DNA from: a virus
Strand: one strand, 5' to 3'
IMG/VR virus record: IMGVR_UViG_3300033148_006239
Span: 1 to 64,000 of that record
DNA: 64,000 bases
The notes below the pieces were generated by a model. That model saw nothing but the letters and a program-made list of their open reading frames with translations, searched no databases and was not told the DNA's origin. Positions 1,620 through 40,786 of this stretch are shown here, piece after piece. The position numbers were made by a program, and so were the translations under genes. Position 1 is the stretch's first letter. Each line of letters starts with the position of its first letter.

Positions 1620-1853
1620 TTATAATTTTTATTTATTAATTTAATAAATAAAAATTATAAAGAATTGGGGTTCCATATCCATCATCCCCGTTAGAGCCAA
1701 AGAAAGTGGTAGATTCGAAAGGATATCGATCTTTATATAAGAATGCTAAATCCTGTTCGGAACGTACAAGAGCCTCCATCAGGTCATATATATTTCTCCT
1801 CCAAAAATATTCTGGTCGGGGGAGGGAACTAATTCTATTAGTTCCTTCCTTTG
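1620..1853 (+). ncRNA. Candidate small RNA 1 with anti-RBS loop
   Basis: Between a promoter and a terminator; perfect 20-bp inverted repeat at the 5' end (1620-1660); CUCCUCC in a hairpin loop; no RBS-led ORF. Confidence 0.55.
1821..1853 (+). terminator. Intrinsic terminator
   Basis: GGAGGGAACTAA-ttcta-TTAGTTCCTTCC then TTT; its G.U pair forms only on the + strand. Confidence 0.65.
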
Positions 1854-1979
1854 ATTAGTTTATTTAATATATTTCTAGTGTTTCAATATGGATCTCCTGA
1901 TCACAGGATCTTTTGATTCAGAAGATCGTTTAGTTCAGGAGGTCTTTATGGGAACATTAGCTTCCCATGGAGGAAAATT

Positions 1980-2486
1980 ATGAATGAATTACATCCGATC
2001 TTTGCATCTATTCATGAGATTGAGGATATAACATTCAATGTCTACGGCATCAAAGTCGAAGACTGTGTTATATCAGGTATCTATAACAATCTATCATTTT
2101 CATGTAAACTTTCTATTACGGATTTCCATGTCGATCTATCTCATTTTATCAATATGGACAATCATGTGAAAGTTACGGTTTCTAATAAAATTCGTACTCT
2201 TTTAGGATACGAACCTTATTATGAAGATATTTCAATGCATGAACAAGAGATCAACGACTTTCCAAAACTTTGTCAGGATTTCGCTGACCACGTCAAATCG
2301 TTATTCAAATTCGCAGAATCGAACTCTTTATCTCCTGATCAATTCAAAAGATTTAGAATTAATTATATCAAGGATTTTAAAAACTTCGATACTTTCCACG
2401 ATCTATTTTTTCACGTTGGCTACATTCTATCTGAATCTACGGAACAAGATATCATGGATCACCTTGAAGAATATTATTCAAAGTAA
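1980..2486 (+). CDS. Early hypothetical protein (N-part resembles ORFs 2551 and 3930; C-part resembles ORF 2882)
   Basis: GGAGG RBS at 1969; visible internal paralogy. Confidence 0.85.
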   Translation: MNELHPIFASIHEIEDITFNVYGIKVEDCVISGIYNNLSFSCKLSITDFHVDLSHFINMDNHVKVTVSNKIRTLLGYEPYYEDISMHEQEINDFPKLCQDFADHVKSLFKFAESNSLSPDQFKRFRINYIKDFKNFDTFHDLFFHVGYILSESTEQDIMDHLEEYYSK

Positions 2487-2553
2487 TCAAATTCAAGCTA
2501 CTTCTAACGAGGTAGCTTCTTTGAGATTATTTAAATCTCAGGAGGAAAATATG
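2481..2553 (+). promoter_or_regulatory. Repeated two-hairpin leader, copy 1
   Basis: AAGTAATCAAATTCA, stem AAGCTACTTC/GAGGTAGCTT, stem TGAGAT/ATCTCA with TTATTT apex, GGAGGAAAATATG. Confidence 0.75.
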
Positions 2554-2790
2554 AAATTAAGATCAATTAAATTCGAAAACTTATTCTTGGTCTGGTACGA
2601 ATGGAAAGAAGGTGAACATGAATTTCACGGTCTTTTCAATGGAAAACACTTCAAAACAACAACATGGGATTACGAACTCTATGACAAATTTGAATCCGAA
2701 GAAATCGATTTCTATAGCCAAGAAAGAAATGATCTACATGAACAAATTAATGAAGCGTTTGATTATTATTTTTCTAATGTTGAAAAATAA
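2551..2790 (+). CDS. Early hypothetical acidic protein (79 aa)
   Basis: Start moved to the ATG after GGAGG at 2541; the track start at 2221 overlaps the previous gene. Confidence 0.85.
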   Translation: MKLRSIKFENLFLVWYEWKEGEHEFHGLFNGKHFKTTTWDYELYDKFESEEIDFYSQERNDLHEQINEAFDYYFSNVEK

Positions 2791-2792
2791 TC

Positions 2793-2884
2793 AAGTAATT
2801 CAATTGAGATTCATAAAATATTTAAAATTATTTAAAAACATTATGGATCTCGATGGGTTTATTTAACCCTCGGAGGAAAATATG
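2793..2884 (+). promoter_or_regulatory. Repeated two-hairpin leader, copy 2
   Basis: AAGTAATTCAATTGA, stem GAGATTCATAA/TTATGGATCTC, stem GGGTT-tattt-AACCC, GGAGGAAAATATG. Confidence 0.7.
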
Positions 2885-3508
2885 GAAACTATACATCAAA
2901 TTCTAGAACGTCAACACATTACAAAAGGCTTAGGAAATGGTTATGAAGGTGAAACAGTTAAAACTTTCTGTTTTAACGATATTTTAAACTCAATATCATT
3001 TTCACTTGCAAATGATTTAATTGGTTCAAAATATGCTGGAGAATTACTTCAACGAGCTACTGAAAATCTATCTAGCATATTTAAAGATCTTAATGTAGTC
3101 GGTGATCTAATTATTAATCGTGTTTCAAATCAAAATGAAGGATCAACTACTCTTCATACTGATGAAAAAAATATCGTAATTAATTATTCTGAATCACCAA
3201 ATTTGTTTGCGGTTCGTATGAAAATTCACGATATTGAAAAATATCACAATGAAGTTTCAATGTATCAAGATGATGTTGATAATTTCCCAAAAAATGTCAA
3301 AGACTTCGCAGATGAAGTTTTTGAAACTTGGGAACTTGCTCAGAAACATTTAACCGAACAGGAATTTAAGCAATTCCAAATTAATTTCATTAAAGATCTG
3401 GGTAGTTCAAGTACAATGTTTGATATGATGTTCGGTGTAAGGTTCATATTATCAGAAGAAGATGATAATATGATTGTTAATCAAATCAAAGAAAATTACA
3501 TCAAGTAA
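2882..3508 (+). CDS. Early hypothetical protein
   Basis: GGAGG RBS; C-terminal ~75 aa aligns by eye with ORF 1980 (FPK...DFAD.V...FK.F.IN.IKD...ILSE). Confidence 0.85.
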   Translation: METIHQILERQHITKGLGNGYEGETVKTFCFNDILNSISFSLANDLIGSKYAGELLQRATENLSSIFKDLNVVGDLIINRVSNQNEGSTTLHTDEKNIVINYSESPNLFAVRMKIHDIEKYHNEVSMYQDDVDNFPKNVKDFADEVFETWELAQKHLTEQEFKQFQINFIKDLGSSSTMFDMMFGVRFILSEEDDNMIVNQIKENYIK

Positions 3509-3579
3509 TCCAATTCAAATCGCTTGGTATTTATCAGGCGATTTCTTTGGGATTATTTTATCCCAGGAGGAAAAATATG
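3503..3579 (+). promoter_or_regulatory. Repeated two-hairpin leader, copy 3
   Basis: AAGTAATCCAATTCA, stem AAATCGCTTG/CAGGCGATTT, stem TGGGAT-tatttt-ATCCCA, GGAGGAAAAATATG. Confidence 0.75.
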
Positions 3580-3840
3580 ATTTTAGAATTAAAAGATACT
3601 AATGAATTTATGCGTCTAGATGATGACGATCCTATAACTGGGATTGAAGACCTATTCAATTTTTATTTAACAACACTTAATACAGATTATTCAAAATCTG
3701 TATTAAAAGATCTTAAATTCCCTTTAAATCTTTATTGGGGTTCAATTTATGATTCTTTAGAAGATGCTAAATTGAATGATCCAACTAATGAATCTGCATC
3801 GGGTTGGACAATTGATAAATTTATTGGTAACCGGCTATAG
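3577..3840 (+). CDS. Early hypothetical protein
   Basis: ATG after GGAGG; the track start TTG at 3547 lies inside the leader hairpin. Confidence 0.8.
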   Translation: MILELKDTNEFMRLDDDDPITGIEDLFNFYLTTLNTDYSKSVLKDLKFPLNLYWGSIYDSLEDAKLNDPTNESASGWTIDKFIGNRL

Positions 3841-3859
3841 CAACGATGGAAATCTAATT

Positions 3860-3932
3860 AAGTAACCAAATTCAGATCCATTCATTGTAAGTGGATCACT
3901 TTGTGGTTATTTGCCACAAGGAGGAAAATATG
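3860..3932 (+). promoter_or_regulatory. Repeated two-hairpin leader, copy 4
   Basis: AAGTAACCAAATTCA, stem GATCCATT/AGTGGATC, stem TTGTGGT-tattt-GCCACAA, GGAGGAAAATATG. Confidence 0.75.
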
Positions 3933-4220
3933 AAACAGGTTATTTTTCAAACACGAGATTTAGTTCTTGAGTTTCAAGAAATAGAACTCGACAACATTAT
4001 TGTTAGTGGTTTGTATCACGATAAACCATTTTCAGGTGTTATTTCACGAACAGCATTTGAAAAATTTGATTATAACAATACCTTTTCATCTAAAGAATTG
4101 GATGATCTTTTTGAAGATATTAAAAAATCAATTGATATTTATTATTTAGATGCTGAAGATGAAGATGAACCTTTATCTGATTATGTTTTAGAAATTTTTG
4201 GAGGAGAAATTGTTCAATGA
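3930..4220 (+). CDS. Early hypothetical acidic protein, paralogue of ORF 2551
   Basis: GGAGG RBS; GLYHDKPF vs GLFNGKHF; S.E..DL.E.I....D.Y pattern shared. Confidence 0.8.
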   Translation: MKQVIFQTRDLVLEFQEIELDNIIVSGLYHDKPFSGVISRTAFEKFDYNNTFSSKELDDLFEDIKKSIDIYYLDAEDEDEPLSDYVLEIFGGEIVQ

Positions 4221-4345
4221 TTATAAAAATAACAACTCTACCATCAAAAGATCTACCAGTATATCATCTCATTAAACGTTACCATAAAAAATCTTATCCT
4301 AAAGTGTCATTTAAAGAAATTTTACTTGAAGCTTTAAATAAGTAA
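4217..4345 (+). CDS. 42-aa basic protein, possibly ribbon-helix-helix
   Basis: Not in track; GGAGGAG RBS at 4200, ATGA overlap with upstream stop, ends SFKEILLEALNK. Confidence 0.55.
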   Translation: MIIKITTLPSKDLPVYHLIKRYHKKSYPKVSFKEILLEALNK

Positions 4346-4368
4346 TCTTTTAGTTGTAGAACTTAAAT

Positions 4369-4397
4369 TTCATCTTAGAAAATCTATTTATTATATT
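4369..4397 (+). promoter_or_regulatory. Early-class promoter TTCATC-N17-TATATT
   Basis: TTTAT-TATATT-ATAA upstream of the RBS of ORF 4435. Confidence 0.6.
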
Positions 4398-4434
4398 ATA
4401 AATAGGTAAAAATTTCATTTTACTTGGAGGAAAT

Positions 4435-4638
4435 ATGGTTTGTCGTACAGAAAACTATGCTTTCAAACTCAAAAATGGTCAAGAAGTAAAAGCTCATTAC
4501 AGAGATTTCTTAGAAACAGAAAATGGTAAAATCTATTGCGATGATCTTGCCGAAGAACTTTGCTATGATAATAAAACAATCAAGATTAAAGATGAAAATG
4601 GTGACTTTTCAGAAGCCATTGAATTGTTTGTTTTATAA
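4435..4638 (+). CDS. Hypothetical protein
   Basis: TTGGAGGAAATATG start. Confidence 0.8.
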   Translation: MVCRTENYAFKLKNGQEVKAHYRDFLETENGKIYCDDLAEELCYDNKTIKIKDENGDFSEAIELFVL

Positions 4639-4662
4639 TTAATTTATTTCATTGGAGGAAAT

Positions 4663-4881
4663 ATGAATTTTGAATTACAATCGGCTATTAATCAACTTGA
4701 TAGTGCCGCAGAGAGCTTAAAAAGATATTCAGAAGAATTAGAAAGAACTATCAAAAGCCTTAAAGATGGTAAAAATCCAAACCCTAATACTTTGGGATTA
4801 ACAACATTCATCGGTAATCTTACATCAAATATATCAAATAAAATTGCTCTTGCAATTTGCAATCTCTGTGAGATTAAGTGA
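4663..4881 (+). CDS. Hypothetical protein
   Basis: TTGGAGGAAATATG start. Confidence 0.8.
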   Translation: MNFELQSAINQLDSAAESLKRYSEELERTIKSLKDGKNPNPNTLGLTTFIGNLTSNISNKIALAICNLCEIK

Positions 4882-5027
4882 TGAATGATTACAATTATCA
4901 AAAACAACTTGATGAAGCTTGGGAACAACAAATCTTCTTCGAAGAAAAACGTATCAAATGTGGATGTAAAATTTGTTTAAATGAAGAATCTGAAGATCCA
5001 TGTCAAGATGTATTAGATTTATGGTAA
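4881..5027 (+). CDS. 48-aa hypothetical protein with CxCxxC
   Basis: TGATG coupling to the upstream stop; fills the gap. Confidence 0.5.
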   Translation: MNDYNYQKQLDEAWEQQIFFEEKRIKCGCKICLNEESEDPCQDVLDLW

Positions 5028-5041
5028 ATAAATGAGAAACT

Positions 5042-5248
5042 ATGAAAATCTTTAGAGAAGAACCTGGCAAAAATAGCTTTACAATTTCAGGATTAACTCT
5101 TGGTAAGCTTAATCTTATTAAAAGATTAATCATTTCAGCTTCTGAAAATTCTGATTCTGCTATTGTTGAAGATTTAAAATGTTTTTTAAATCAATATGAT
5201 CTAAAAAACACGAACACTTATGACGGCGACGTAAAATCAAATTCCTGA
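5042..5248 (+). CDS. Hypothetical protein
   Basis: ORF in operon orientation. Confidence 0.7.
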   Translation: MKIFREEPGKNSFTISGLTLGKLNLIKRLIISASENSDSAIVEDLKCFLNQYDLKNTNTYDGDVKSNS

Positions 5249-5329
5249 ATAAAAAATTATCCTTTATAATAATATAATTTTTTAATTCGTAAAACTGATA
5301 ACTTTTTTTGATCTCACGAAAATCGCCTA

Positions 5330-5358
5330 TTTACTTTAGTTTCTCAATTTATTATATT
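5330..5358 (+). promoter_or_regulatory. Early-class promoter TTTACT-N17-TATATT
   Basis: Upstream AAAATC(A)GCCTATTT shared with the promoter at 9713. Confidence 0.7.
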
Positions 5359-5397
5359 TTAAATATATAACACTGTAATACGGTGTTTGGAGGAAAT

Positions 5398-5526
5398 ATG
5401 AAAAATATAAACATTCAAGATCTCTTTGATGACTATGATGAAGAAGATTATGACGATTATCATTGTCAAATTACTGATCTTGACGATGATCAAATTTCAA
5501 TTGAATGTCAGCAATTAGATTATTAA
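5398..5526 (+). CDS. 42-aa highly acidic micro-protein
   Basis: Not in track; TTGGAGGAAATATG start; MKNINIQDLFDDYDEEDYDDYHCQITDLDDDQISIECQQLDY. Confidence 0.7.
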   Translation: MKNINIQDLFDDYDEEDYDDYHCQITDLDDDQISIECQQLDY

Positions 5527-5614
5527 CATTCTACCTTGAAGCTTATAAGATTATAAGATTATAAGCTTCAAGGCCGATTGTTAATCGGAACCATTAATTT
5601 TATTGGAGAAAATT

Positions 5615-6052
5615 ATGAAAAAGAAAAACACAGTAATCAAAGAAGAAGCAGTCAAAAAAACTGCTCCTGTAGTAATTGACAAGCCAAAAACTAAAACAAT
5701 TACAAAACCTGCTCAGAAAGAAGTAATCGTAAAAAAGAACAAAAAGAACAAAGCTTCTAAAGAGCAGATTCAACAAATTTGGACAACAATCCAAACTCAG
5801 ATTGATGAAAACATTAATAAAGGTAAAGAAATCAATTCTGAAATTAAAAATTCAATTGCTGAACAATTACACAAAACGATAAAGGTATATCCTAATCAAG
5901 GATATTATCTTTATTACATCAACAAATATGTCAACGGTGACATTCCAATCAATCAAAGCAAAAATGGTGTAGCCTTAGATAAAGATGCACAGAAAAAGCA
6001 AGTCACTACCCAAATTGAATCTCTCAAAACACAACTTGGAAAATTAAAATAA
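5615..6052 (+). CDS. Lys-rich hypothetical protein
   Basis: GGAG RBS before ATG 5615. Confidence 0.8.
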   Translation: MKKKNTVIKEEAVKKTAPVVIDKPKTKTITKPAQKEVIVKKNKKNKASKEQIQQIWTTIQTQIDENINKGKEINSEIKNSIAEQLHKTIKVYPNQGYYLYYINKYVNGDIPINQSKNGVALDKDAQKKQVTTQIESLKTQLGKLK

Positions 6053-6055
6053 TTT

Positions 6056-6098
6056 ATACCCTCTGTAGATTTATAAGGCTGATCTACAGAGGGTATTT
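6056..6098 (+). terminator. Terminator hairpin
   Basis: ATACCCTCTGTAGAT / ATCTACAGAGGGTAT 15-bp inverted repeat just after the stop. Confidence 0.75.
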
Positions 6099-6117
6099 AT
6101 ATATATTTTATTTTAAT

Positions 6118-6146
6118 TTTTCTACAAACATCAATTTTATTATATT
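6118..6146 (+). promoter_or_regulatory. Early-class promoter TTTTCT-N17-TATATT
   Basis: Exact consensus upstream of an AGGAGG RBS. Confidence 0.7.
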
Positions 6147-6173
6147 ATAATTAATAAAATTAAGGAGGAATCT

Positions 6174-6401
6174 ATGATATTCGGTGTAGATTTTCAACAA
6201 GCATGTAAAGCAACTACTACAGGTCATAAAGTTAAAAGAGCAAATGGTGCGAATGTATATACATTTCTATCACCTGCTCATGCAATGGTCTTACAAACCA
6301 TAAGGGACAAATTTGGAAACGCAACAGAAAGTAAACCTGTCGCAACATTAATCTCAACAAACGATCAACAGGAAAATGACTGGATGATGTATCAAAAATA
6401 A
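6174..6401 (+). CDS. Tad2/DUF2829-like anti-defence sponge protein
   Basis: DFQQACKATTTGHKVKR...STNDQQENDW fits the F..A....G.KV.R...S..D..A.DW family pattern. Confidence 0.55.
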   Translation: MIFGVDFQQACKATTTGHKVKRANGANVYTFLSPAHAMVLQTIRDKFGNATESKPVATLISTNDQQENDWMMYQK

Positions 6402-6413
6402 CCGGGAGAAAAT

Positions 6414-6773
6414 ATGACTTATAAAGAAAAATTTATCGAAAAACTTCAGATTTATAATCTTAGTAAATCTGAAGACTTAGAACATGACGTAATTGCTCAT
6501 CTAATAAATTGGGCAGAAAAAGGTAATGACTTCGCTTATAATTTATTAAGGTTAAATTTTGATACTGCCGAATCATTAATTCATAAATTTTATGAATGGG
6601 AACTGGATAAAAACGAAGTATATCCCATGGACACAGAACTTATTCTTGAGATGTATTTTATAAAAGCAAAAGGAATTGCAAAAAAATCTGGAATCTGCAT
6701 CGAGAAAATAAAAACAACACATATGCATATCATTTTCTATTTAATAGAAAATGAATTTCTAAAATTATTTTGA
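6414..6773 (+). CDS. Hypothetical protein
   Basis: GGGAG RBS. Confidence 0.8.
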   Translation: MTYKEKFIEKLQIYNLSKSEDLEHDVIAHLINWAEKGNDFAYNLLRLNFDTAESLIHKFYEWELDKNEVYPMDTELILEMYFIKAKGIAKKSGICIEKIKTTHMHIIFYLIENEFLKLF

Positions 6774-6780
6774 GGTAATT

Positions 6781-7659
6781 ATGAAAAAATTATACAAAGT
6801 TTTTGATCCAGGTTTGATCAGCCCGTATCAGAATTTTAAATACAAAAAAGATAAAGAATATCATTGTGATAATTTTGACTATGATCAGTCGGATCATTGT
6901 AGTAATGGTTTCTATGCCGTCCCTATCGAAGGATTAATTTACACTTACCGCAAAGGTAAACATGTATACGAAGTCAATGTATGGGGTGATGAAATCATTA
7001 TAGATCAATTTAAGCAACGATACGAATATATTAATATTGGTAACAGAATACCACTGAAACAATTAAAACAACTAGTCAAAGAACAATCTAATAAAATGGA
7101 TTACAATTTATATCATACAATGTTCCCAATTGATCCACAGATAGTAAATCGTAAATTAAACAATAATGATAGTAAAATATTAGAAAAATGGGATTGTGTG
7201 AGGGATTCTGTGAGGACTTCTGTGTGGAATTCTGTGAGGGATTCTGTGAGGGATTCTGTGGGGGATTGTGTGTGGAATTCTGTGAGGGATTCTGTGAGGA
7301 CTTCTGTGAGGGCTTCTGTGTGGAATTCTGTGGGGGATTGTGTGTGGAATTCTGTGAGGGATTCTGTGTGGAATTCTGTGGGGGATTCTGTATGGGATTC
7401 TGTGAGGGATTCTGTGGGGGATTGTGTGTGGAATTCTGTGAGGGATTCTGTGGGGGATTGTGTGGGGGCTTATATATCAAACCTATTTCCATGCATGAAA
7501 AAATGGAAATATATAAATCATAAGCCAAATATTAATCCATATCAGTCATGTATTGATTTATGGCATCGTGGGTTTGTGCCTTCATTTGACGGTAAAATAT
7601 GGCGATTACATCAAGGCAGAGATGCTAAAATAATCTACGAATGGAAAGCAAAACAATGA
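6781..7659 (+). CDS. Phage protein with 23 [WRG][DNTA][SC]V tetrapeptide repeats
   Basis: GAGG RBS; N-terminal CSNGFYA domain; repeat is in frame. Confidence 0.85.
   Translation: MKKLYKVFDPGLISPYQNFKYKKDKEYHCDNFDYDQSDHCSNGFYAVPIEGLIYTYRKGKHVYEVNVWGDEIIIDQFKQRYEYINIGNRIPLKQLKQLVKEQSNKMDYNLYHTMFPIDPQIVNRKLNNNDSKILEKWDCVRDSVRTSVWNSVRDSVRDSVGDCVWNSVRDSVRTSVRASVWNSVGDCVWNSVRDSVWNSVGDSVWDSVRDSVGDCVWNSVRDSVGDCVGAYISNLFPCMKKWKYINHKPNINPYQSCIDLWHRGFVPSFDGKIWRLHQGRDAKIIYEWKAKQ
7189..7464 (+). repeat. 23 x 12-nt coding tandem repeat (consensus NGG-RAT-TCT-GTG)
   Basis: Directly visible. Confidence 0.95.
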
Positions 7660-7847
7660 TTATTTATTTAAAAAAGAGTGAACATAATATACCTGAATGG
7701 TTTAAAAACCCTAGATATACTTTGAAACATGATACATATAAAGACGAATATATTCTAGGTGATGCTGATCGTCTAATTTATTTCAGAGTACATAAATTAA
7801 ACAAAGCAAATTTCAAAAAATTTAAAAAACTTTTGGAGGAAGAATGA
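7656..7847 (+). CDS. Hypothetical protein
   Basis: ATGA overlaps at both ends. Confidence 0.7.
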   Translation: MIIYLKKSEHNIPEWFKNPRYTLKHDTYKDEYILGDADRLIYFRVHKLNKANFKKFKKLLEEE

Positions 7848-8248
7848 ATCACGACATTTATATTTCTGGACCTTTTAAAGATCCAAATAATTTAAAACTT
7901 GTAACAGAAATTAATAATCTTTGTGAATCAAATGGATTTAAAACTTTTCATACATTAAAAGATGGAATTGTTTTAGATGAAGATTCAGATAATGATAAAA
8001 TACGTGAAGCTATTAGATTGGGTATAGATGCTACATTACACGCAAAGATTTTTATAGCAATAGGACTAGATCCAGGTGTCATGTTTGAATTAGGATTAGC
8101 ATGGCGCTATGGAAAAAGAATTATATATTTCTCAAAAAATAAACCAAACAAAGTTATTTCAGCAATATCTAATTATGTAATAGAAAAAGATTTTGGTGAA
8201 CTAAATGTAGCTTTACAGATTCTTGGAGTAGATTATGACAGAAATTAA
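7844..8248 (+). CDS. Nucleoside 2-deoxyribosyltransferase / nucleotide N-hydrolase family
   Basis: IYISGPF and DPGVMFELGLA motifs. Confidence 0.75.
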   Translation: MNHDIYISGPFKDPNNLKLVTEINNLCESNGFKTFHTLKDGIVLDEDSDNDKIREAIRLGIDATLHAKIFIAIGLDPGVMFELGLAWRYGKRIIYFSKNKPNKVISAISNYVIEKDFGELNVALQILGVDYDRN

Positions 8249-9521
8249 AACAATTCTTGAAGAAATTGCATCTGAATCTAGTACAAATAAAAAAGTAGAA
8301 ATTTTACAATCTTATAAAGATAATAAAAAATTACAATCATATCTAAAAATGACTCTCGATCCTATGATTAATTTTAATGTAACTAAAAAATCGTTCAAAG
8401 ATAGATTTGAAATCTGGATTAATGATAGTGAATCTAATAATATTAATTGGTTTGAACTCAAAAAATATGTTTTAGATAAATTATGTTCAAGAGAAGTTAC
8501 TGGTCATAAAGCGTTACAATTATTTATTGATCATTATGTTGGAAATGAAATTGTTCTTAATATTATCTTCGATATGTTCCAAAAAAAAGTATGGAAAGCA
8601 AATATCTCTATTCAATTAATTAATCGTGTTTGGCCCGATGTTATTGATAAATTTCAAGTTCAATTAGCACAAAAATATTCTAAAGCTGAATTACCTTTTG
8701 ATATTACTTATGCATCCAGAAAACTTGATGGTACAAGAGCATTAATATTTATTTATGAAAATTCAATAAAAATCTTTTCAAGAAATGGAAAAGAAATACA
8801 CACCTTAGAATCATTCAAAAAAGATTTACTTAAACATATACAAGAATCTCATTATTCACGTATTATTCCATGTGTCATTGATGGTGAATTGTGTGTTGTT
8901 GATGAAAATAATAATGAAAGTTTTCAATCTATCATAAAACAATTACGTAGAAAAGATTATGATATAAAAAATGCAACATTTTATGTATTTGATTGGCTAT
9001 TAGTAGACGAATTCTATGAAAATATAAAATCTCCACAATTCAGTTATAGACTAAATGCTTTAAACTATTTTTGTAATACAATTGATTATGACAAAGTCAA
9101 AGCATTAAAACAGATCGTAGTCAAAAGAGAAAGCCATTTACAAAGATTAATTGAATCTGCATCAGAAAGAAATTGGGAAGGAATAATGCTTAAAAATGGT
9201 GAAAGTATTTATAAAGGAAAAAGAACTAAAAATCTGCTAAAAGTAAAGAAAATGAGTGATAACGAATATACAGTCACAAGATTAGAAGAAGGGTCTGCAA
9301 AATATATTGGAAGATTAGGTGCGGCAATAATTATACATAAAGATAATGAAGTTCATGTAGGTAGTGGCTGGTCTGATTCAGAAAGAGATTACTATTGGAA
9401 AAATAAAAATGAATTAATCGGAAAGAAAATTACAGTTCAATACTTTGAAGAAACTAAAAATCAACTAGGAAAATATTCCCTTAGATTTCCAGTCTTTAAA
9501 GGAGTAAGAGATTATGAATAA
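8235..9521 (+). CDS. ATP-dependent DNA ligase
   Basis: KLDGTR, IDGEL, YVFD, WEGIMLK, LLKVK, SLRFPVF motifs. Confidence 0.95.
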   Translation: MTEIKTILEEIASESSTNKKVEILQSYKDNKKLQSYLKMTLDPMINFNVTKKSFKDRFEIWINDSESNNINWFELKKYVLDKLCSREVTGHKALQLFIDHYVGNEIVLNIIFDMFQKKVWKANISIQLINRVWPDVIDKFQVQLAQKYSKAELPFDITYASRKLDGTRALIFIYENSIKIFSRNGKEIHTLESFKKDLLKHIQESHYSRIIPCVIDGELCVVDENNNESFQSIIKQLRRKDYDIKNATFYVFDWLLVDEFYENIKSPQFSYRLNALNYFCNTIDYDKVKALKQIVVKRESHLQRLIESASERNWEGIMLKNGESIYKGKRTKNLLKVKKMSDNEYTVTRLEEGSAKYIGRLGAAIIIHKDNEVHVGSGWSDSERDYYWKNKNELIGKKITVQYFEETKNQLGKYSLRFPVFKGVRDYE

Positions 9522-9681
9522 TAAAAAAGAAATTGAAGAAATTATTGAAAAATATTTAATTGAGAAATTAATAATTTCTTTTGATCGTTATACAAATAAT
9601 TGTGGTGATGAAATAATAGAAATTGAAATTTCTTTAAAAGATACAAAATTTTCCATAATTAAATCAATAACAGTAAATTGA
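9514..9681 (+). CDS. 55-aa hypothetical protein
   Basis: Not in track; AAGGAG RBS inside the ligase 3' end. Confidence 0.55.
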   Translation: MNNKKEIEEIIEKYLIEKLIISFDRYTNNCGDEIIEIEISLKDTKFSIIKSITVN

Positions 9682-9712
9682 AAACTTTTTTTAATCAAAT
9701 AAAATCAGCCTA

Positions 9713-9741
9713 TTTTCTTTGTAAAACTTATTTATTATAAT
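9713..9741 (+). promoter_or_regulatory. Early-class promoter TTTTCT-N17-TATAAT
   Basis: Consensus match. Confidence 0.75.
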
Positions 9742-9790
9742 ATAAATAACAAAATAAAAGGTTATTACTTAATAACCAATGGAGAAAAAT

Positions 9791-10264
9791 ATGATAACTA
9801 ATTTTATTTCAAACAGAAATCTTCAAGACTTACTTCTAGGTGAACCTCAAATTGAAATTTTCAAAGACCAAAATAATGAATTTCATTTTATTCATTTTGA
9901 AGATATTCATATTGAAATATGGGAAGATGATTCCCTAAAACAACAATCTCATTCTAATAATGTTTCATCAATAAACGAACAAGATTTACTTAATAATGAA
10001 ATTGTTATTGCAAACAATATAGAAAATGTTAAATTAGTTCTTGAAGAAAGACTTCAAAACAAATACTTTCTTGTAATCTCAGAAAAGAAAACATACAAAG
10101 TCAAGATTAAAGCAACATTTGAACTTGAAACGACAATTGAAAATACAACAGAAGAACTAGCAAAAAGAGAAGCAGAAAAATATGAAATTGAATGTAGCTG
10201 CGACAGTGAACTTGAAGTAATAGATGAAGACTTTAATATTGAAGTAGAGGAAGAGGGAGAATAA
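9791..10264 (+). CDS. Acidic hypothetical protein
   Basis: GGAG RBS at 9781 before ATG 9791. Confidence 0.8.
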   Translation: MITNFISNRNLQDLLLGEPQIEIFKDQNNEFHFIHFEDIHIEIWEDDSLKQQSHSNNVSSINEQDLLNNEIVIANNIENVKLVLEERLQNKYFLVISEKKTYKVKIKATFELETTIENTTEELAKREAEKYEIECSCDSELEVIDEDFNIEVEEEGE

Positions 10265-10917
10265 TGAAAATAATAAATAACTGGTCAATAGTAGATGGAA
10301 TCGGTATTTATGTTTCACCTCAAGCTATAAATTATCATATCTATCTCATAGGTAGTATCGAAGGTGTTAATACACAAACATCATATATTAAGAAATTAAT
10401 ACTTTACGACAATAAAATTGAAACACTAAATAGCGTTTATGAATTAGGTCAAAAATCAGAAAATTATTCAAGATTTCTATCTGAAGAAGATCTATCAATT
10501 ACAGATGCATATCCAAATAGTGATCTAATTGATTTATTCATTAAAAATGAATTAAAATTAGGAACACTAAAAGGTTGTCTAAAAACGGGGTGGTATGATT
10601 GGTTTTGTGAACCTGAAAAAATACCAAGCAAAACAAAAAAATTATTAAGACTGCTTTATGAAATTAGAAATACAAAAAAGTTTGATATTTCTAATACAGC
10701 AGTAATGTTCAAAAATAATTGTCATGTAGATTATGGACTGTACGATGATTTTAGAATATTGGATTTATATAAACAATCTTCAAATCCAATATTCACAATA
10801 ATACCATATTATCCACACATTAAGCAATCAGCAGTTTATGGACCTGAAAATAAGTTTGAAGAACCATTGGTGAGTGGAACATGGAACGACGTTTTAAGAT
10901 TTTTTAATAAGGAATAA
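10264..10917 (+). CDS. Hypothetical protein, apparently two domains
   Basis: TAATG coupling; C-domain GWYDWFC...FKNNC...LYDDFRI. Confidence 0.8.
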   Translation: MKIINNWSIVDGIGIYVSPQAINYHIYLIGSIEGVNTQTSYIKKLILYDNKIETLNSVYELGQKSENYSRFLSEEDLSITDAYPNSDLIDLFIKNELKLGTLKGCLKTGWYDWFCEPEKIPSKTKKLLRLLYEIRNTKKFDISNTAVMFKNNCHVDYGLYDDFRILDLYKQSSNPIFTIIPYYPHIKQSAVYGPENKFEEPLVSGTWNDVLRFFNKE

Positions 10918-10962
10918 TATTTATATTATTCTCAAATTTTGTTCAAAAACAAGGAGTAACTT

Positions 10963-11310
10963 ATGGACAACATTGTAGAAACTTATCAAGATATATTGGA
11001 TACAATGAGTTCAAATATTGACGAATTCTTTGAATCACAACCAATCTCTAAAAAAGCGATTGAAGAAATTCAAACTGAATTTGATGATCTCAATTGTGAC
11101 AACGTTCTTGTCAACGAAAAGACAAGATGCCTTGTCTTTTTAAACGAAAAGACACTCAAAAATTGGAGTGAAAAAACTCCAATAAAACCAAAGAACATTA
11201 TTAACATGGACAGTGCATTTGTTGCTTACCAACGTATACCATCAAATGCAAATAAAGAAGTTAAAGGATTTTTTCAGTTAATCACAGGTGAGAGAAAGGC
11301 AAATGTATAA
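10963..11310 (+). CDS. Hypothetical protein
   Basis: AAGGAG RBS. Confidence 0.8.
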   Translation: MDNIVETYQDILDTMSSNIDEFFESQPISKKAIEEIQTEFDDLNCDNVLVNEKTRCLVFLNEKTLKNWSEKTPIKPKNIINMDSAFVAYQRIPSNANKEVKGFFQLITGERKANV

Positions 11311-11316: not shown

Positions 11317-11345
11317 TTTACTTTATTAATCAGTTTTATTAGGTT
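11317..11345 (+). promoter_or_regulatory. Early-class promoter TTTACT-N17-TAGGTT, near twin of the promoter at 1587
   Basis: TTTACTTTATTAATCAGTTTTATTA vs TTTTCTTTATTAATCTATTTTATTA. Confidence 0.55.
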
Positions 11346-11351
11346 ATTAAC

Positions 11352-11484
11352 TGATTAAGTCCTTTTTATATGAAGTTTAATTATATATTCCTCCCAGTAC
11401 AATAATTAAACTTCATTTTTTTCGCAATACTGTAACATATTTTTCTCCAAAGGGGCATGGTACTCACTTTCCATGCCCCTTTTC
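11352..11484 (+). ncRNA. Candidate small RNA 2 with anti-RBS segments
   Basis: 15-bp perfect stem (11370-11384/11402-11416) enclosing UUCCUCCC; CAUAUUUUUCUCCAA at 11436-11450; ends at terminator. Confidence 0.5.
11449..11484. terminator. Terminator between convergent blocks
   Basis: AAAGGGGCATGG...CCATGCCCCTTTT. Confidence 0.8.
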
Positions 11485-20714: not shown

Positions 20715-23700
20715 TTAACCACAACTACCATCAGAATTACCACAATTTGGACATGTTTTACATCTTCCTGTTTGTTCCATCAATGTTCCACATTTACTAC
20801 ATGATTCACCAGTTTCTTTTTGAACTTGTGTAACATTTTTATCTAAATATTTCATTAATAAATATTTACCTAAATAGTCTGAAGGTGAATTAACAAATCT
20901 TAATTCATTGATACTGCTTGATGTAATTCCAGCAGGTTCATATTTCATATCAATTAATGAATTACATAATTCTTCTAAAGGAACTTCGTATTGTAATGCC
21001 TTTGATATTATCTTTGCAAGTGAATCCATTAAACCAGCAGTCGTAGATCCTTCTTTATTCATAATTATAAATAATTCTGCTAAACTACCATCATCAAATT
21101 CACCTGGAATTATATACATTGTTTGTTTATCAATCTTTACTTTATGTACTGAGGCATTTCTTGTATCATCAAGTGCTTTCTTTTTATTGCTTTGACCAAT
21201 AAAACCTTTATTATTACCAGTATTCAGTGGCTGAGTCATTTTACTTCCATCTCTGTAAATTGTAATACCTTTTAATTTACTTTTCCACGCAAACATAAAT
21301 GCATCTTTAACATCATCAACTGTAGAATCTGAACTCATATTTATTGTCTTTGAAATCGCACCACTGATAAAGGGTTGTACTGCAGCAACCATCATTATAT
21401 GTGCTTCATAGCTAAGCATATTCCCAGCTTTATCGGGTAATGAACATTCAAATACTTTTTGATGTTCTTCTTTCAAAAATTTACAATCACTTAAATCATT
21501 ATTCTCTGACAGATGTTCTAGAATATTTCTCGTATAATTTTCATCATATCCTAGTGCTTTCAATGCATTTTGTACCGAATCATTTATTAAAATTTCTGTA
21601 GTACCACTTATTAATTTCTTATACTTTATTAAAGCTAAATCAGACTCAATACCTGTCGTATCACAATCCATTAAAAATGATATTGTACCAGTAGGAGCTA
21701 TTACTGTAACTTGAGCGTTTCTAAATGTTAAACCTTCCGATGTAATAAATGACCAATTATCAAGTGCTTCGTCGTACAATTCATTATAATTAAAATCTAT
21801 CTTTAATTGAGGAAAATTTATTCTTTTGTGTTCTACTAAATGCTTCTTAAGAACCTTTCTGAAAGAAGATTTATTTTTTTCAAAATATTTAAATGGTTCT
21901 AAAAATTCAGATACTTCAGAGCTTACAGCATAAGCAGTAGACGTCATTAAACTAGTGATAAGAGATGCGATTAATCTTCCATCATCTGAATCATAAGGAA
22001 TACCTAATGTCATTAACAGTGATCCAAGATTACTAAAGCCTAATCCTAATGGTCTAAAATCTTGTGAATTTTCTTTTACTGATTCATTTGGATATTCAGA
22101 AATCTCACATATAATATCTTGCGAAATTACAAATAATTTTATAATGTGCTTGAATTTATCAATATCAAATTTATTACCATCTAGAAGTTTTATTAAATTA
22201 ACCGATGCTAAATTACATGCACTATCATTAAGAAAAACATATTCACCACAATTATGTATAATAACAAATCCCTTCTCAGATCCAGCAGCAAAATTTCCCA
22301 ACGAAGGAACAGATAAATCATAAACATCTTCACGTTTACGTTTTCTTACATAAATAACTTTATGATTATATTGTAAACATTTTTCTTTAAAATCATCCCA
22401 ATCTAAACCTTGAACTCTTCTTTTATAAGTATGACCAATAGGAGCTTTACCTCTATAGCGTTCTTTAACTATTTTATTCCATTCATTTAATTCTGATCTA
22501 TTAACTCTCTTATTTTTAGAATAATTTTCTAAAGCTTCAACCATTATATTATATAATAGTTTAGCGTCACAATCCATAAACATACCATTATTAACACCTT
22601 TCCTAGCACAATTTTCTTTCCAAAGATCATATTTTTCTTTATTCGTATTCTTCAAAATACGAATAGGATTATTATCTCCCATAACATGATCTCTAGCATG
22701 CTTTGACTTTGAAATAACTTCTAAATTATTTGGATCATCATTGAGCTTATCATGATCTTTATGATGTACATGAAATTGTCTATCACTTCTATCAAAATCT
22801 AATATATCGTTAGCAACAACTCTATTACACTTTTGTAATGGATATTCACCATCCAAAAGATTCATTCTTCTATACCCAAATTTATCAACTCTACAATAAA
22901 ATGGTGTCAAAGAATCACCTTGTTTTAAATCTTTTGCTTTTTTATATTTACCGTTCTTTAATAAAAATCTATGATCTGGTGTACAATCTATATAGCCACC
23001 ACTACCGAACCCGACTCTTACTGTTTCTGTATTAACTTTTGTTTTAACTATCTTATTGACTTTTCCAACTGAAATCCTTTTCCTATCATAAGAATAACCA
23101 TAAACATATAAATTATCATAATCATTAATAAGTTCATCAACTCTTTTCGGACCACGCGTCGTAAATATTAATGTTGATCCAGTAACACATGGATTACTAG
23201 ATTCTATCTTACCACTTCTCTTGCACGTGTGCCAATCATTAACTCTCGTATCAAAGAACAAAGCAGGATCTCCACAAAAATGTGAATATTCACAAATTTT
23301 ATTAAATACTTCTTTTGCATTCAAAATATCAATTTGATCACCAGTTGTTCTTGCCACTGTGGCGTACGTATTATTTTGCACTACTCTTTCCATAAAATCG
23401 TCAGTTACGGAAACAGAAAAATTACTGTTCTGAAAATTAACATGTTTATATGCACTATTTTTACTAGAAAAATCTGTCGAATATTCTCCTGTAGAAGCTA
23501 ATAATCTTGCTTTAATCTCTTCTTTATATTTAGCTTCAATAAATTCAATAATATCAGGATGGTCGTAGTTCAATATTTCCATTTTTGCGGCGCGACGTGT
23601 ATTTGAAACACAAATTCCTTTACCATAAATATCACTTTTATTATCTAACGACCATATAATATAATTATGACCAGAATTTATAGATTTATCATCTAAAGAA

Positions 23701-25214
23701 TCGCAATCAACTTCAACAGAATATACTTCTTCTTCTTTTAATTTTATTATTTCAATAATTTTATGATTATTTTCATTTACTGTTTTTAAAAAATTTTCAT
23801 AATCACCAAAATAATTTTCGATACTTCTTTTTAATCTTGGTACACTGTCAAATTTACCAATATATTTTAATCTATTTTTTACATATAAATCAAATGTATC
23901 TATATTTCCACCTGCATTAATAACTCTATATGCAGTATTCATTAATTTAGTTTTAGCTGTTTTATCAGAATATTTAACTTTTCTATTTTTTCCTGAAATA
24001 CTCAATTTTTCTTTCCAATTTTTAACTTTTTCTTCGTCTTTATGAAAATTATTTTTCTTATGCATTCCATTTTTTTCACCTTTTTTAGGCAAAGGTTTTA
24101 ACCATGGATGACTTTTATTTTTTACATATTCATCATTATGAATTTTTGCATGTTCTTTTTGTGTTAAAATTTGTAAATTATTTAAACTATTATTATGTGT
24201 ATTACTATCTTTATGATGAACTACTTTACCTTTTAAATCTTTATTTAAAATATCTTTACTGATTAATCTATATAGTGTATCTCTTCCTTTTTTACCATCC
24301 ATTAATCCAATTCTCATTTTCTCATCGATATTAAATGAAAATAATCTCATTCCAACTTCTAAGTCTATTGTATGTATAAACTCACCTGTTCTCAATTTAA
24401 TAGGATGATCATAACTTAAATCAAATGTACCTTTATCTGTTTTAATCCTATAGCATTGTTTGATACCTGAACACCACGCTTTAGCACTTTTAACCATATA
24501 TCTATTTTTTTTAGGATCAAAACTACAAACATAAAATTTATCTTTTGTTAATTCATCAATCCTTTTTGCTCCGTCAATAGTATAAATTTTTTGGTGACCT
24601 GGTAAACATTTACCGCCCGACTTAACTACCGCAGCTGTCTTATCGTATAATTCCATAAACGAAAGAGGACCTGATGGAACACCACCACCTGACAATTTCT
24701 CTCTAAATGATCTAATCTTACTTCTATTAGAACCTATTCCTGATCCATATTTAAATATCTTAGCTTCGTTTGCAACATTATCTATAATTGAATCTATAGT
24801 GTCTTCAGAATCAACTATAAAACAAGCACTTAAAAATCCTTTTTTATCATTACCTAAGTTGAATAATACTGGACTATTAAACATTGTAATTTGATGAATT
24901 AAAATGTACATCATTTCATTATAAAAAGTTTCATGATTTTTAGTATCAAAATATTTTAATCTGACACCATTTTCGCATAATCTCGAAACAATTCTATCAA
25001 ACATATCAAAGATTGAATATTCATTTTCTGTTAAATAAAATTTTGTTGCAATTCTAACTGCTACATCAGACCAAAAATCTGGATATTCTATAACCTTTTT
25101 ATAATTATGATCATTATCATCGCTATATTCTATTTCTTTGCTTATCCAATTGCAGAAATCTTTCTTCTTCATTATTGAAAATTTACGTGTGTAAGCATTA
25201 TTTATCTTTATCAT
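20715..25214 (-). CDS. nrdJ: Class II (B12-dependent) ribonucleotide reductase with two inteins
   Basis: FNSP, SACF, NP|CGE, ACNLAS, IAPTGTIS, ISKTIN, YRDGS motifs; C-terminal Zn ribbon. Confidence 0.93.
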   Translation of the reverse strand: MIKINNAYTRKFSIMKKKDFCNWISKEIEYSDDNDHNYKKVIEYPDFWSDVAVRIATKFYLTENEYSIFDMFDRIVSRLCENGVRLKYFDTKNHETFYNEMMYILIHQITMFNSPVLFNLGNDKKGFLSACFIVDSEDTIDSIIDNVANEAKIFKYGSGIGSNRSKIRSFREKLSGGGVPSGPLSFMELYDKTAAVVKSGGKCLPGHQKIYTIDGAKRIDELTKDKFYVCSFDPKKNRYMVKSAKAWCSGIKQCYRIKTDKGTFDLSYDHPIKLRTGEFIHTIDLEVGMRLFSFNIDEKMRIGLMDGKKGRDTLYRLISKDILNKDLKGKVVHHKDSNTHNNSLNNLQILTQKEHAKIHNDEYVKNKSHPWLKPLPKKGEKNGMHKKNNFHKDEEKVKNWKEKLSISGKNRKVKYSDKTAKTKLMNTAYRVINAGGNIDTFDLYVKNRLKYIGKFDSVPRLKRSIENYFGDYENFLKTVNENNHKIIEIIKLKEEEVYSVEVDCDSLDDKSINSGHNYIIWSLDNKSDIYGKGICVSNTRRAAKMEILNYDHPDIIEFIEAKYKEEIKARLLASTGEYSTDFSSKNSAYKHVNFQNSNFSVSVTDDFMERVVQNNTYATVARTTGDQIDILNAKEVFNKICEYSHFCGDPALFFDTRVNDWHTCKRSGKIESSNPCVTGSTLIFTTRGPKRVDELINDYDNLYVYGYSYDRKRISVGKVNKIVKTKVNTETVRVGFGSGGYIDCTPDHRFLLKNGKYKKAKDLKQGDSLTPFYCRVDKFGYRRMNLLDGEYPLQKCNRVVANDILDFDRSDRQFHVHHKDHDKLNDDPNNLEVISKSKHARDHVMGDNNPIRILKNTNKEKYDLWKENCARKGVNNGMFMDCDAKLLYNIMVEALENYSKNKRVNRSELNEWNKIVKERYRGKAPIGHTYKRRVQGLDWDDFKEKCLQYNHKVIYVRKRKREDVYDLSVPSLGNFAAGSEKGFVIIHNCGEYVFLNDSACNLASVNLIKLLDGNKFDIDKFKHIIKLFVISQDIICEISEYPNESVKENSQDFRPLGLGFSNLGSLLMTLGIPYDSDDGRLIASLITSLMTSTAYAVSSEVSEFLEPFKYFEKNKSSFRKVLKKHLVEHKRINFPQLKIDFNYNELYDEALDNWSFITSEGLTFRNAQVTVIAPTGTISFLMDCDTTGIESDLALIKYKKLISGTTEILINDSVQNALKALGYDENYTRNILEHLSENNDLSDCKFLKEEHQKVFECSLPDKAGNMLSYEAHIMMVAAVQPFISGAISKTINMSSDSTVDDVKDAFMFAWKSKLKGITIYRDGSKMTQPLNTGNNKGFIGQSNKKKALDDTRNASVHKVKIDKQTMYIIPGEFDDGSLAELFIIMNKEGSTTAGLMDSLAKIISKALQYEVPLEELCNSLIDMKYEPAGITSSSINELRFVNSPSDYLGKYLLMKYLDKNVTQVQKETGESCSKCGTLMEQTGRCKTCPNCGNSDGSCG
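22251..23189 (-). mobile_element. Intein 2 (313 aa) with HNH endonuclease, at the NP|CGE catalytic Cys
   Basis: Starts CVTGSTLI; block B CTPDH; HHKDHDKLNDDPNNL; ends VYDL...IIHN/C. Confidence 0.92.
23601..24608 (-). mobile_element. Intein 1 (336 aa) with HNH endonuclease, at KSGGK|TRRAA
   Basis: Starts CLPGHQKI; block B LSYDH; HHKDSNTHNNSLNNL; ends CVSN/T. Confidence 0.88.
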
Positions 25215-31058: not shown

Positions 31059-31332
31059 TATAAACTTCTTTATATAAAGAATCTGTAATTGCCGTTATTT
31101 CACCTGTCATTTTTTCATCTCTATTTTCTTCAGTTATTTTGTTTTTTATCATATAATCTATGATAACGTTAAAATAAATCATTTGAAAAGAAAAATTTAT
31201 ATCATCTAATTTTGAATAATCAAAATTATTTTTCTGAATAAATATTATTCTGAATAATCTGAATACCCATTTTATAAAAGGAACAATTAATTTTGTTGTT
31301 TTATTTCGCATTAAATTCTTTCTCTTTCTCAA
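31051..31332 (-). CDS. Hypothetical protein
   Basis: Coupled ORF (start may be 31311). Confidence 0.6.
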   Translation of the reverse strand: MRKRKNLMRNKTTKLIVPFIKWVFRLFRIIFIQKNNFDYSKLDDINFSFQMIYFNVIIDYMIKNKITEENRDEKMTGEITAITDSLYKEVYNG

Positions 31333-40784: not shown

Positions 40785-40786
40785 AT

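Follow-up and report, generated by a model that had tools for sequence, protein, structure and literature searches.

Five folded RNA units in the early block

In the 105,324-bp genome of an uncultured phage, a folded RNA element precedes each of the first five rightward genes of the early block, and every one of these elements can adopt two mutually exclusive folds. The stretch of DNA that was analyzed (the window) comprises 64,000 nucleotides of this genome. Four units begin at positions 2481, 2793, 3503 and 3860, and a diverged fifth copy, unit 0, lies at 1877–1982; all are on the + strand. The exact motif AAGTAAYYMAATTSA occurs four times, whereas 0.01 occurrences are expected from shuffling, and it is found nowhere else in the 105,324-bp genome. 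Each unit consists of two hairpins followed by GGAGGAAAA(A)TATG. The folding z-scores range from -2.9 to -4.4, and the + strand folds better than the - strand in every unit. All four units of the preliminary description, each with the shared 5' motif, two hairpins and SD-ATG, were located. A covariance model trained on these four units only, with unit 0 left out, independently recovered the elaborated copy reported before ORF 1980 (30.7 bits, E 6.6e-4 in a search of the whole window with the filters off). The model had no matches beyond the five units in the 105-kb genome.

The units share one layout, in which the 5' motif M is followed by stem 1, a segment called M', stem 2 and the SD. Unit 0 (1877..1982), the leader of the first gene, has M at 1877–1888, a branched stem 1 at 1890–1945, M' at 1947–1958, stem 2 at 1945–1971, the SD at 1969–1973 and the ATG at 1980. 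Unit 1 (2481..2553), between genes X1 (1980–2486) and Y1 (2551–2790), has M at 2481–2488, the linker AAAUUC, stem 1 at 2495–2518, the linker CUUU, M' at 2525–2532, stem 2 at 2522–2528/2534–2540, the SD at 2541 and the ATG at 2551. Unit 2 (2793..2884) separates Y1 from X2 (2882–3508); its M (2793–2801) and long stem 1 (2803–2854) are followed by M' (2856–2864), stem 2 (2855–2859/2865–2869), the SD (2872) and the ATG (2882). Between X2 and Z (3577–3840) lies unit 3 (3503..3579), with M at 3503–3511, stem 1 at 3517–3544, M' at 3549–3557, stem 2 at 3548–3553/3560–3565, the SD at 3566 and the ATG at 3577. The last one, unit 4 (3860..3932), stands between Z and Y2 (3930–4220) and has M at 3860–3868, stem 1 at 3875–3897, M' at 3904–3912, stem 2 at 3899–3907/3913–3921, the SD at 3920 and the ATG at 3930.

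The five genes separated by the units are + strand ORFans, as is a small ORF at 4217–4345. None of the genes flanking the units has a match in Pfam or PHROG. BLASTP aligned X1 with X2 (37% identity, E 1e-19) and Y1 with Y2 (27% identity, E 2e-4), and the two pairs are old paralogues. In unit 1, M holds the Lys-stop of ORF 1980–2486, and in unit 3 it holds that of ORF 2882–3508; the preliminary description was right about both cases. The distance from the upstream stop codon to M is 0, 0, 3 and 20 nt; no ORF lies upstream of unit 0. The sequence AAGTAATC at 4340–4347, which forms the Lys-stop of ORF 4217–4345, resembles a remnant of M. We rejected it, as the 8-mer occurs at chance frequency and no hairpins come after it.

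Two mutually exclusive folds

The 5' motif M (AAGUAAYYM) is complementary to M', that is, to the 5' arm of stem 2 together with its UUAUUU loop. Since M pairs with this arm and the apex, the apex forms half of an alternative lower stem; and since the M:M' pairing occupies the sequence of stem 2, each unit has two folds that exclude each other. Fold I consists of stem 1 and stem 2. Fold II consists of the M:M' lower stem, an internal loop and stem 1, and it has 17–22 bp overall in all five units (8–9 bp, then a loop of 5–6 x 5–6 nt or a near-continuous helix, then 8–14 bp). Stem 1 by itself has 8–12 bp. The role of M as half of an alternative lower stem is new here; the preliminary description had treated the motif as sequence only.

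The energies of the two folds differ by no more than about 4.5 kcal/mol in every unit. Fold II is the minimum free energy (MFE) structure in two units of five, and in the other three fold I is more stable by 1.3–4.5 kcal/mol. In unit 0, fold II is the MFE structure (-41.0 kcal/mol versus -36.5 for fold I), and the M:M' helix is in register with the other units and carries compensatory changes. In unit 3, fold II is again the MFE structure, at -23.9 kcal/mol (9 bp, a 5x5 loop and 12 bp). In unit 2, fold II forms a 22-bp helix with hardly an interruption and has -21.3 kcal/mol, and fold I of this unit has -22.6 kcal/mol.

Covariation, strand specificity and selection

The sample consists of five sequences, all of them paralogous copies within one genome. 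Stems 1 and 2 are paired in 90% of cells, both sides have changed in 9 of 14 pairs, and none of 500 shuffles reached this level. The stem 2 arms listed in the preliminary description (TGAGAT/ATCTCA, GGGTT/AACCC, TGGGAT/ATCCCA, TTGTGG/CCACAA) are present as given, and its claim that the stem sequences differ with pairing retained is supported by these counts. The M:M' helix was examined on an alignment fitted to stems 1 and 2 only, so that the alignment carries no bias towards M:M'. It turned out that 96% of cells are paired, with both sides changed in 5 of 10 pairs, most of these compensatory changes coming from one diverged unit, unit 0. None of 500 shuffles matched this result, and controls in which the helix was slid were paired in 28–58%. 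On the same alignment, RNAalifold, unaided, predicted M:M' and stem 1 with 17 pairs, 11 of them with compensatory change. We also tried the duplex energies of cognate versus non-cognate M/M' combinations as a test in the four close units; they do not discriminate, because six of nine M:M' pairs are invariant.

Stem 1 and the M:M' helix contain 13 G.U cells and not a single A.C or C.A cell, which indicates that the structure belongs to the + strand. The preliminary description had taken the G.U pairs as a sign of + strand RNA or single-stranded DNA. The strand was borne out, and of the two molecules the data point to RNA.

The unpaired positions are 86–94% identical among the four units, and the stem columns 29–68%. 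For comparison, identity is 51% in the paralogous coding sequence next to them, and the third codon positions of this sequence, at 29%, are saturated. Judged by this comparison, the unpaired positions of the units are under strong purifying selection. AAGUAA/UUAUUU, AAUUSA and CUUUG are nearly invariant in the four units. RNase E and RNase Y prefer AU-rich single-stranded sequence next to a hairpin. Such a site could be suspected here: RNase E (or, if the host is Firmicute-like, RNase Y) would cut the AU-rich M/AAAUUCA 5' of the hairpin, and stems 1 and 2 would protect the new 5' end. A conserved, unpaired AU-rich sequence does lie immediately upstream of the hairpin, and conservation of M and the linker suits a nuclease that reads sequence better than it suits RNase III. 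However, cleavage of this type leaves the compensatory changes in M:M' unexplained, and the upstream message would lack a 3' hairpin; we consider it quite unlikely.

The two folds may also be thought of as a switch that operates without any cleavage, in which the choice between M:M' and stem 2 tunes initiation of translation downstream. In fold I the CUU/UUU linker would pair with the GGA of the SD, fold II would free the SD, and the state would be set by a ribosome, protein or RNA occupying M. This would account for the three-way covariation of M and the 5' and 3' arms of stem 2, and for the overlap of M with a stop codon in two units. In addition, the linker pairs with the first 2–3 nt of GGAGG in the fold I MFE structure of four units, the pairing in the unit at 2793 being hand-drawn only. 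Yet the computed accessibility of the SD is 0.05–0.58 and moves in no common direction upon masking of M or truncation, and we dropped the SD-masking switch as the effect was inconsistent. The direction of the effect would also amount to an odd negative coupling. The variable stop-to-M distance, with unit 0 having no upstream ORF at all, argues against a switch driven by a terminating ribosome and favors cleavage as the trigger. A riboregulator of this kind is thus an unlikely explanation. We found no trans-acting RNA complementary to M in the leader at 1587–1860 or at 11317–11484 (p 0.17–0.89). The SD regions match anti-RBS stretches in the sequences of this leader and of 11317–11484.

Comparison with T7 and a proposed mechanism

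Substrates of RNase III have about two helical turns, and stacked short helices suffice; internal loops confine the cutting to one strand, which leaves a protective 3' hairpin (PMC1540722). Stem 1 alone would be too short for RNase III. Addition of M:M' produces a 17–22 bp hairpin like those of T7, which places the RNase III reading on better ground. A hairpin of about two turns with a lower stem, a loop and an upper stem, as in RNase III signals, is present in fold II of all five units.

The T7 early signals R0.3, R0.5, R1, R1.1 and R1.3 stand one before every early gene, including the first, and the same arrangement is seen here. Folded with the same tool, R0.3–R1.3 give 17–22 bp with a lower stem, an internal loop and an upper stem, as in fold II. 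The stop codon of T7 gene 0.4 is inside the lower stem of R0.5, and here a stop codon is inside M. In both phages the lower stem ends 17–19 nt before the next start codon, and the sites within one phage share some conserved sequence. The conserved parts differ: in T7 they are the upper stem and loop, whereas in the units they are the lower stem and the loops, with a variable upper stem. Moreover, the 3' strand of the lower stem in the units doubles as half of stem 2, and this alternative fold is absent from the description of T7. Inspection by eye revealed no similarity to the intergenic sequences of T7, and a blastn search with the region found nothing in all phage records. On the sequence comparison, the units would be analogues of the T7 sites and not homologues. 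By description, SP82 is similar in having conserved repeated intercistronic hairpins in early mRNA and a host with strong GGAGG sites. A cleavage product of SP82 reportedly begins near a purine-rich SD.

The data fit best with the units being a module at the RNA level, analogous to the RNase III sites of T7. The preliminary comparison with T7 is partly supported, through the geometry of a covarying two-tier hairpin of 17–22 bp. We suggest that the units may be intercistronic sites of cutting and refolding, at which host RNase III would cleave fold II, leaving a 5' end that stem 2 then caps; to this we assign a probability slightly below one half. The five units would be cis-acting elements of one polycistronic early mRNA. 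During transcription, fold II would form ahead of fold I, because the 3' arm of stem 2 is transcribed only after M, stem 1 and M'. With its two tiers, an internal loop and a length of about two helical turns, fold II would be a bacterial RNase III substrate by type, and the host enzyme would nick its 3' side within or close to the CUUU linker. The upstream message would retain its stop codon and end in the stem 1 hairpin, which would protect its 3' end. M', once freed, would pair with its downstream partner to form stem 2, and stem 2 would cap the new 5' end directly ahead of the next gene's ribosome-binding site. The phage was found to encode neither an RNase III nor a dsRBD.

RNase III needs no conserved sequence, yet the units contain near-invariant blocks, which hints at an additional sequence-specific reader. 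The units could be a form of cut-and-refold punctuation that has not been described before. M' would be selected to pair with M first and with the 3' arm of stem 2 afterwards, and the invariant nucleotides would be read by a dedicated factor, either an early protein of the phage or some host nuclease that is not RNase III. We regard this as doubtful. In its extreme version, the RNA may cleave itself. Clustered cis hammerhead ribozymes flank single prophage genes and were proposed to cut long transcripts into single-gene mRNAs (PMC3088659); like the units, they are structured RNAs repeated between phage genes. No Rfam match to the ribozyme families (hammerhead, twister, pistol, hatchet, HDV-like) was obtained in 1800–4500 even at E<=1, nor was any ribozyme family matched anywhere in the genome. 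A constant catalytic core is lacking, since units 0 and 2 have their internal-loop nucleotides engaged in base pairs.

Transcription signals and possible exchange of cassettes

Host RNase III cleavage as proposed above would act on one long transcript. The promoter-like TTTATTATATTATAA motif is present ahead of later + strand genes and absent between these five genes, which fits such a transcript. At 1812..1858 on the + strand, 18 nt upstream of unit 0, there is an uninterrupted hairpin of 22 bp, 7 of them G.U pairs, with a U-rich tract after it. It has -33.9 kcal/mol on the + strand versus -20.9 on the - strand (z -5.1) and was flagged as terminator-like. This hairpin would be either a terminator or attenuator or another double-stranded RNA target, and it may or may not be part of the system.

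Stem 1 could itself be a leaky intrinsic terminator or attenuator, and M with the conserved loop of stem 2 a nut-/put-like site for an antitermination factor that times read-through from one gene to the next. The combination of M and stem 2 recalls boxA/boxB, in which a linear box is joined to a hairpin with a conserved loop and a variable stem. U-rich sequence follows stem 1 in some units, and stem 1 of unit 4 was flagged as terminator-like. But a simple terminator rule accepts only one of the five copies of stem 1, a U-tract is missing from unit 2, and no antiterminator was identified. The covariation of M:M' would also go unexplained, and we find this punctuation of transcription very unlikely.

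The PeSLs of T4-type phages are defined by a sigma-70 promoter and a terminator hairpin (PMC2839356, PMC4122927). Like the units, they recur as a composite motif beside small early ORFan genes in a myovirus and could mediate modular shuffling; the units differ in having two covarying hairpins and an alternative helix, in ending in a ribosome-binding site and in having no promoter. A sigma-70 promoter within the units was considered and rejected, as the distance from stem 1 to the ATG is only about 35 nt and the single consensus match puts the -10 over the SD-ATG spacer. If the units were nevertheless DNA-level boundaries of cassette recombination, PeSL-like or attC-like, their RNA structure would be incidental. 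They do flank ORFans, the order X1-Y1-X2-Z-Y2 shows past duplication and insertion, and identical blocks of 13–15 nt could support homologous exchange, as in PeSLs (PMC2839356). However, the promoter, which defines a PeSL, was not detected and has no space. The 13 wobble cells are without exception G.U on the + strand; the units keep a fixed place between stop codon and SD and involve the SD in pairing, both of which are features of RNA; and the purifying selection on single-stranded positions far exceeds what recombination needs. There is no integrase, and the complete genome has no match to PF00589, hence no tyrosine recombinase as a partner of an integron attC, a site that folds on the bottom strand and has a conserved core. 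The attC-like site that had been offered as an alternative is not supported: besides this absence, the G.U pairs and the fixed, sense-oriented placement point to RNA, and no attC-type features were seen. Recombination boundaries at the DNA level are therefore a highly improbable explanation.

Search for related elements

A match to a known Rfam family would have spoken against the novelty of the element. The covariance search of the whole genome gave zero Rfam matches at or above the gathering threshold; the sole sub-threshold match, a plant miRNA model on the 1812–1858 hairpin, is spurious. Blastn of 1800–6000 against 50,697 phage records found no match. The full exact pattern does not occur in IMG/VR, and the pattern of linker, loop and SD gave two chance matches there, both rejected by the covariance model. 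A pattern scan of metagenomes returned 120 single chance matches, mostly one human-gut locus without hairpins; 100 of these loci were scored with the covariance model (best E 0.07), and the last 20 were judged by eye.

The proteins of the phage led no further. In IMG/VR neither X2 nor the ligase has a close relative. Among 5.8 billion clusters X2 stands alone as a singleton, and the protein atlas offers only sub-threshold leads for it; the X1/X2 profile, run against 1.8 billion representatives, recovers nothing but itself. For the ligase, the best match other than itself has 40% identity, and no units were found at 80 ligase loci of other large phages. The Pol III alpha of the phage is less than 30% identical to that of any known phage, and no related phage was found in any collection searched.

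Significance

If the units are cut as proposed, one early transcript would become five independently stabilized single-gene messages. A compact RNA of 70–100 nt would then carry a nuclease substrate, 3' and 5' protective hairpins and a ribosome-binding site, and might serve as an insulator in synthetic operons. This would extend the principle of T7 and SP82 to a phage lineage that is unrelated and branches deeply, and the refolding step built into the units would go beyond the descriptions of the textbook sites. The units also bear on how ORFan early genes duplicate and move together with their expression signals.

Phage Genome and Setting of the Array

The complete virus record is 105,324 bp long with a terminal repeat of 114 bp, and the window is its first 64 kb. 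The phage has a G+C content of about 27% and is myovirus-like by its baseplate wedge. It carries genes for a DnaE-type Pol III alpha, DnaB, RecA, SbcCD-like proteins, an ATP ligase and a ribonucleotide reductase, whose large subunit (20715-25214, - strand) is split by an intein with an HNH endonuclease. No close relative was found: Pol III alpha is less than 30% identical to that of any deposited phage, and the best non-self match of the ATP ligase is 40% identical. A tubulin/FtsZ-family GTPase gene (45608-46744, - strand; Pfam PF00091, E 1.7e-9) is present in this phage of only 105 kb; near it lie recA (31301-32359), SbcC/SbcD-like genes (27847-31058), and a ThyX-like gene, an epimerase and a methyltransferase (39003-41761).

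Leftward genes and a rightward block (1980-11310) of small genes with strong GGAGG ribosome sites lie on either side of a non-coding stretch of 1.9 kb (23-1979). From this gene layout, we infer that the first rightward genes are early. About 460 bp of the non-coding stretch (23-480), directly upstream of the leftward gene starting at position 22, contain no G on the + strand (A.40, T.34, C.27). Within the rightward block, ORF 6781-7659 holds a 12-nt unit (GGGATTCTGTGA) 23 times in tandem at 7190-7468, with a local G+C of 0.44 and a GC skew of +0.53; the repeats encode the tetrapeptide (R/W/G)(D/N)(S/C)V.

Repeated Leaders Preceding the First Five Rightward Genes

The preliminary description placed four RNA leader units at 2481, 2793, 3503 and 3860 (units 1-4, + strand) and a diverged fifth copy ahead of the gene at 1980 (unit 0, from 1877), and all five were found there. 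Each forms two hairpins, after which comes GGAGGAAAA(A)UAUG (folding z -2.9 to -4.4). Folding is better on the + than on the - strand, and the G.U argument for the + strand held as well, since all 13 wobble cells are G.U on that strand and none is A.C. An exact 15-nt motif has four copies where 0.01 would be expected, and there is no further copy in the whole genome. A covariance model trained on stems 1 and 2 of units 1-4, which score 71-91 bits, matched the left-out fifth copy at 1871-1982 (30.7 bits, E 6.6e-4, whole window, filters off); the next-best match in the window has E 0.14. Thus, the family has five members, all preceding the first five rightward genes. The units match no described RNA family: known families, including ribozymes, were excluded over the whole genome. 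The units are so far confined to one genome. A 31-codon ORF (1888-1983, + strand) covers both stems of unit 0 and ends in a TGA that overlaps the first gene's start codon (ATGA); it is probably not translated, because no ribosome-binding site (SD) lies ahead of it. The stem 1 apical loops of units 2 (2793-2884) and 3 (3503-3579) also hold UAUUU, the pentamer of the stem 2 loop.

The genes between the units are ORFans. Two pairs are paralogues, X1 (1980-2486) with X2 (2882-3508) at 37% identity (E 1e-19), and Y1 (2551-2790) with Y2 (3930-4220) at 27% (E 2e-4). Judging by sequence, the array of units and genes was born of an ancient duplication. Over their last 31 codons, X1 and X2 share 51% of DNA positions, and third positions are saturated (29%). 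Across units 1-4, identity is 86-94% at positions that lie outside the stems but only 29-68% in the stem columns, where pairing is nonetheless kept. This pattern points to a structured, functional element, not a duplication remnant. The covariation noted earlier is borne out: stems 1 and 2 are 90% paired with 9 of 14 pairs altered on both sides, a level reached by none of 500 shuffles.

The units might instead be DNA-level cassette boundaries. Promoter-early stem-loops of T4-type phages, however, require a promoter, which is absent here, and the attC-like site once considered fails on the integrase that it requires, as the complete genome has none. A TTTATTATATTATAA-like motif is conserved at 4387, 5348, 6136 and 9731 (+ strand) and 14146 (- strand); it lies 15-45 nt ahead of the ribosome sites of later genes on the + strand and may represent a class of phage promoter. 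A looser copy is present near 1597-1616, but the motif was not found between the first five genes.

Two Alternative Folds of the Leaders

The 5' motif of the unit (M, AAGUAAYYM) is complementary to M', which comprises the 5' arm of stem 2 and its UUAUUU loop. M and M' are AAGUAAUC / GAUUAUUU in unit 2481, AAGUAAUCC / GGAUUAUUU in unit 3503 and AAGUAACCA / UGGUUAUUU in unit 3860; unit 2793 pairs with one mismatch, and unit 0 shows AGUGUUUC.AAU / AUU.GAAACAU-type pairing in letters quite different from the others. The covariance-model alignment was fitted to the two stems alone; in it, M and M' are 96% paired, 5 of the 10 pairs of this helix are altered on both sides, and 0 of 500 shuffles equalled it. 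When the partner was slid by 1-3 columns, pairing was only 28-58%. RNAalifold, unprompted, gave a consensus of M:M' plus stem 1 on this alignment (17 pairs, 11 with compensatory change). M' covaries with both M and the 3' arm of stem 2; therefore, the two helices are mutually exclusive. The energies of fold II (M:M' lower stem and stem 1) and fold I (stems 1 and 2) are -41.0 and -36.5 kcal/mol in unit 1877, -18.3 and -20.5 in 2481, -21.3 and -22.6 in 2793, -23.9 and -23.1 in 3503, and -16.6 and -21.1 in 3860. Both folds have covariation behind them, and the element is a genuine + strand RNA under selection. A search for a trans-acting RNA complementary to M found none.

Two folds could mean a translational switch driven by ribosomes. 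Three observations speak against it: the stop codon lies 0 to 20 nt from M depending on the unit, no ORF is present upstream of unit 0, and the SD shows no consistent shift in computed accessibility. Two + strand stretches (1783-1806 and 11436-11448) are complementary to the units' GGAGGAAAAUAUG ribosome sites (-14 to -24 kcal/mol, p<=0.06 versus shuffles). Their anti-RBS role is uncertain, since each doubles as the ribosome site of a - strand ORF. A terminator or antitermination element is a further rival, but of the stem 1 hairpins just one satisfies a simple terminator rule. A separate hairpin at 1812-1858 (+ strand), 18 nt upstream of unit 0, has 22 uninterrupted bp and is followed by a U-rich tract; its 7 G.U pairs all favour the + strand (-33.9 versus -20.9 kcal/mol). 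It may be a leader-RNA terminator or attenuator, or a further double-stranded RNA target.

Predicted Processing of the Leaders

In fold II, 8-9 bp form the lower stem and 8-14 bp the upper one, for a total of 17-22 bp; the internal loop between them measures 5-6 by 5-6 nt and almost closes up in units 0 and 2. Folded by the same tool, T7's five early intergenic regions have the same layout and size, e.g., R0.5 with 8 bp, loop and 10 bp. The T7 gene 0.4 UGA stop lies within the R0.5 lower stem, and here the stop codons (UAA) of X1 and X2 fall within M, so the 5' motif does supply the upstream stop codon, as claimed. From the lower stem end to the next AUG there are 17-19 nt in both phages. RNase III substrates typically have two helical turns, although short helices suffice if stacked, and internal loops limit the enzyme to one strand, leaving a protective 3' hairpin (PMC1540722). 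The earlier comparison with RNase III sites thus stands for fold II geometry, and the processing function is a prediction.

The near-invariant AAGUAA/UUAUUU, AAUUSA and CUUUG of units 1-4 exceed known RNase III needs, and a sequence-specific reader of these nucleotides may exist. A site for a single-strand nuclease (RNase E or Y) would account for why M and AAUUCA are conserved in sequence, but it leaves the M:M' covariation unexplained.

In the RNase III reading, fold II would be the first to form, as transcription reaches M, stem 1 and M' ahead of the stem 2 3' arm. Neither RNase III nor a dsRBD was found among the phage genes; therefore, cleavage would be left to a host enzyme, as in T7 and SP82. 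This enzyme would cut on the 3' side, close to the CUUU linker, and leave the upstream mRNA with its stop codon and a 3' hairpin. Units 1 and 3, in which the stop codon sits in M, would for this reason need a one-strand cut, and both have an open internal loop. M' would then refold as part of stem 2, which would stand at the new 5' end immediately ahead of the SD. The units are most likely intercistronic processing and stabilisation sites like those of T7 and SP82, with a refolding step built in.
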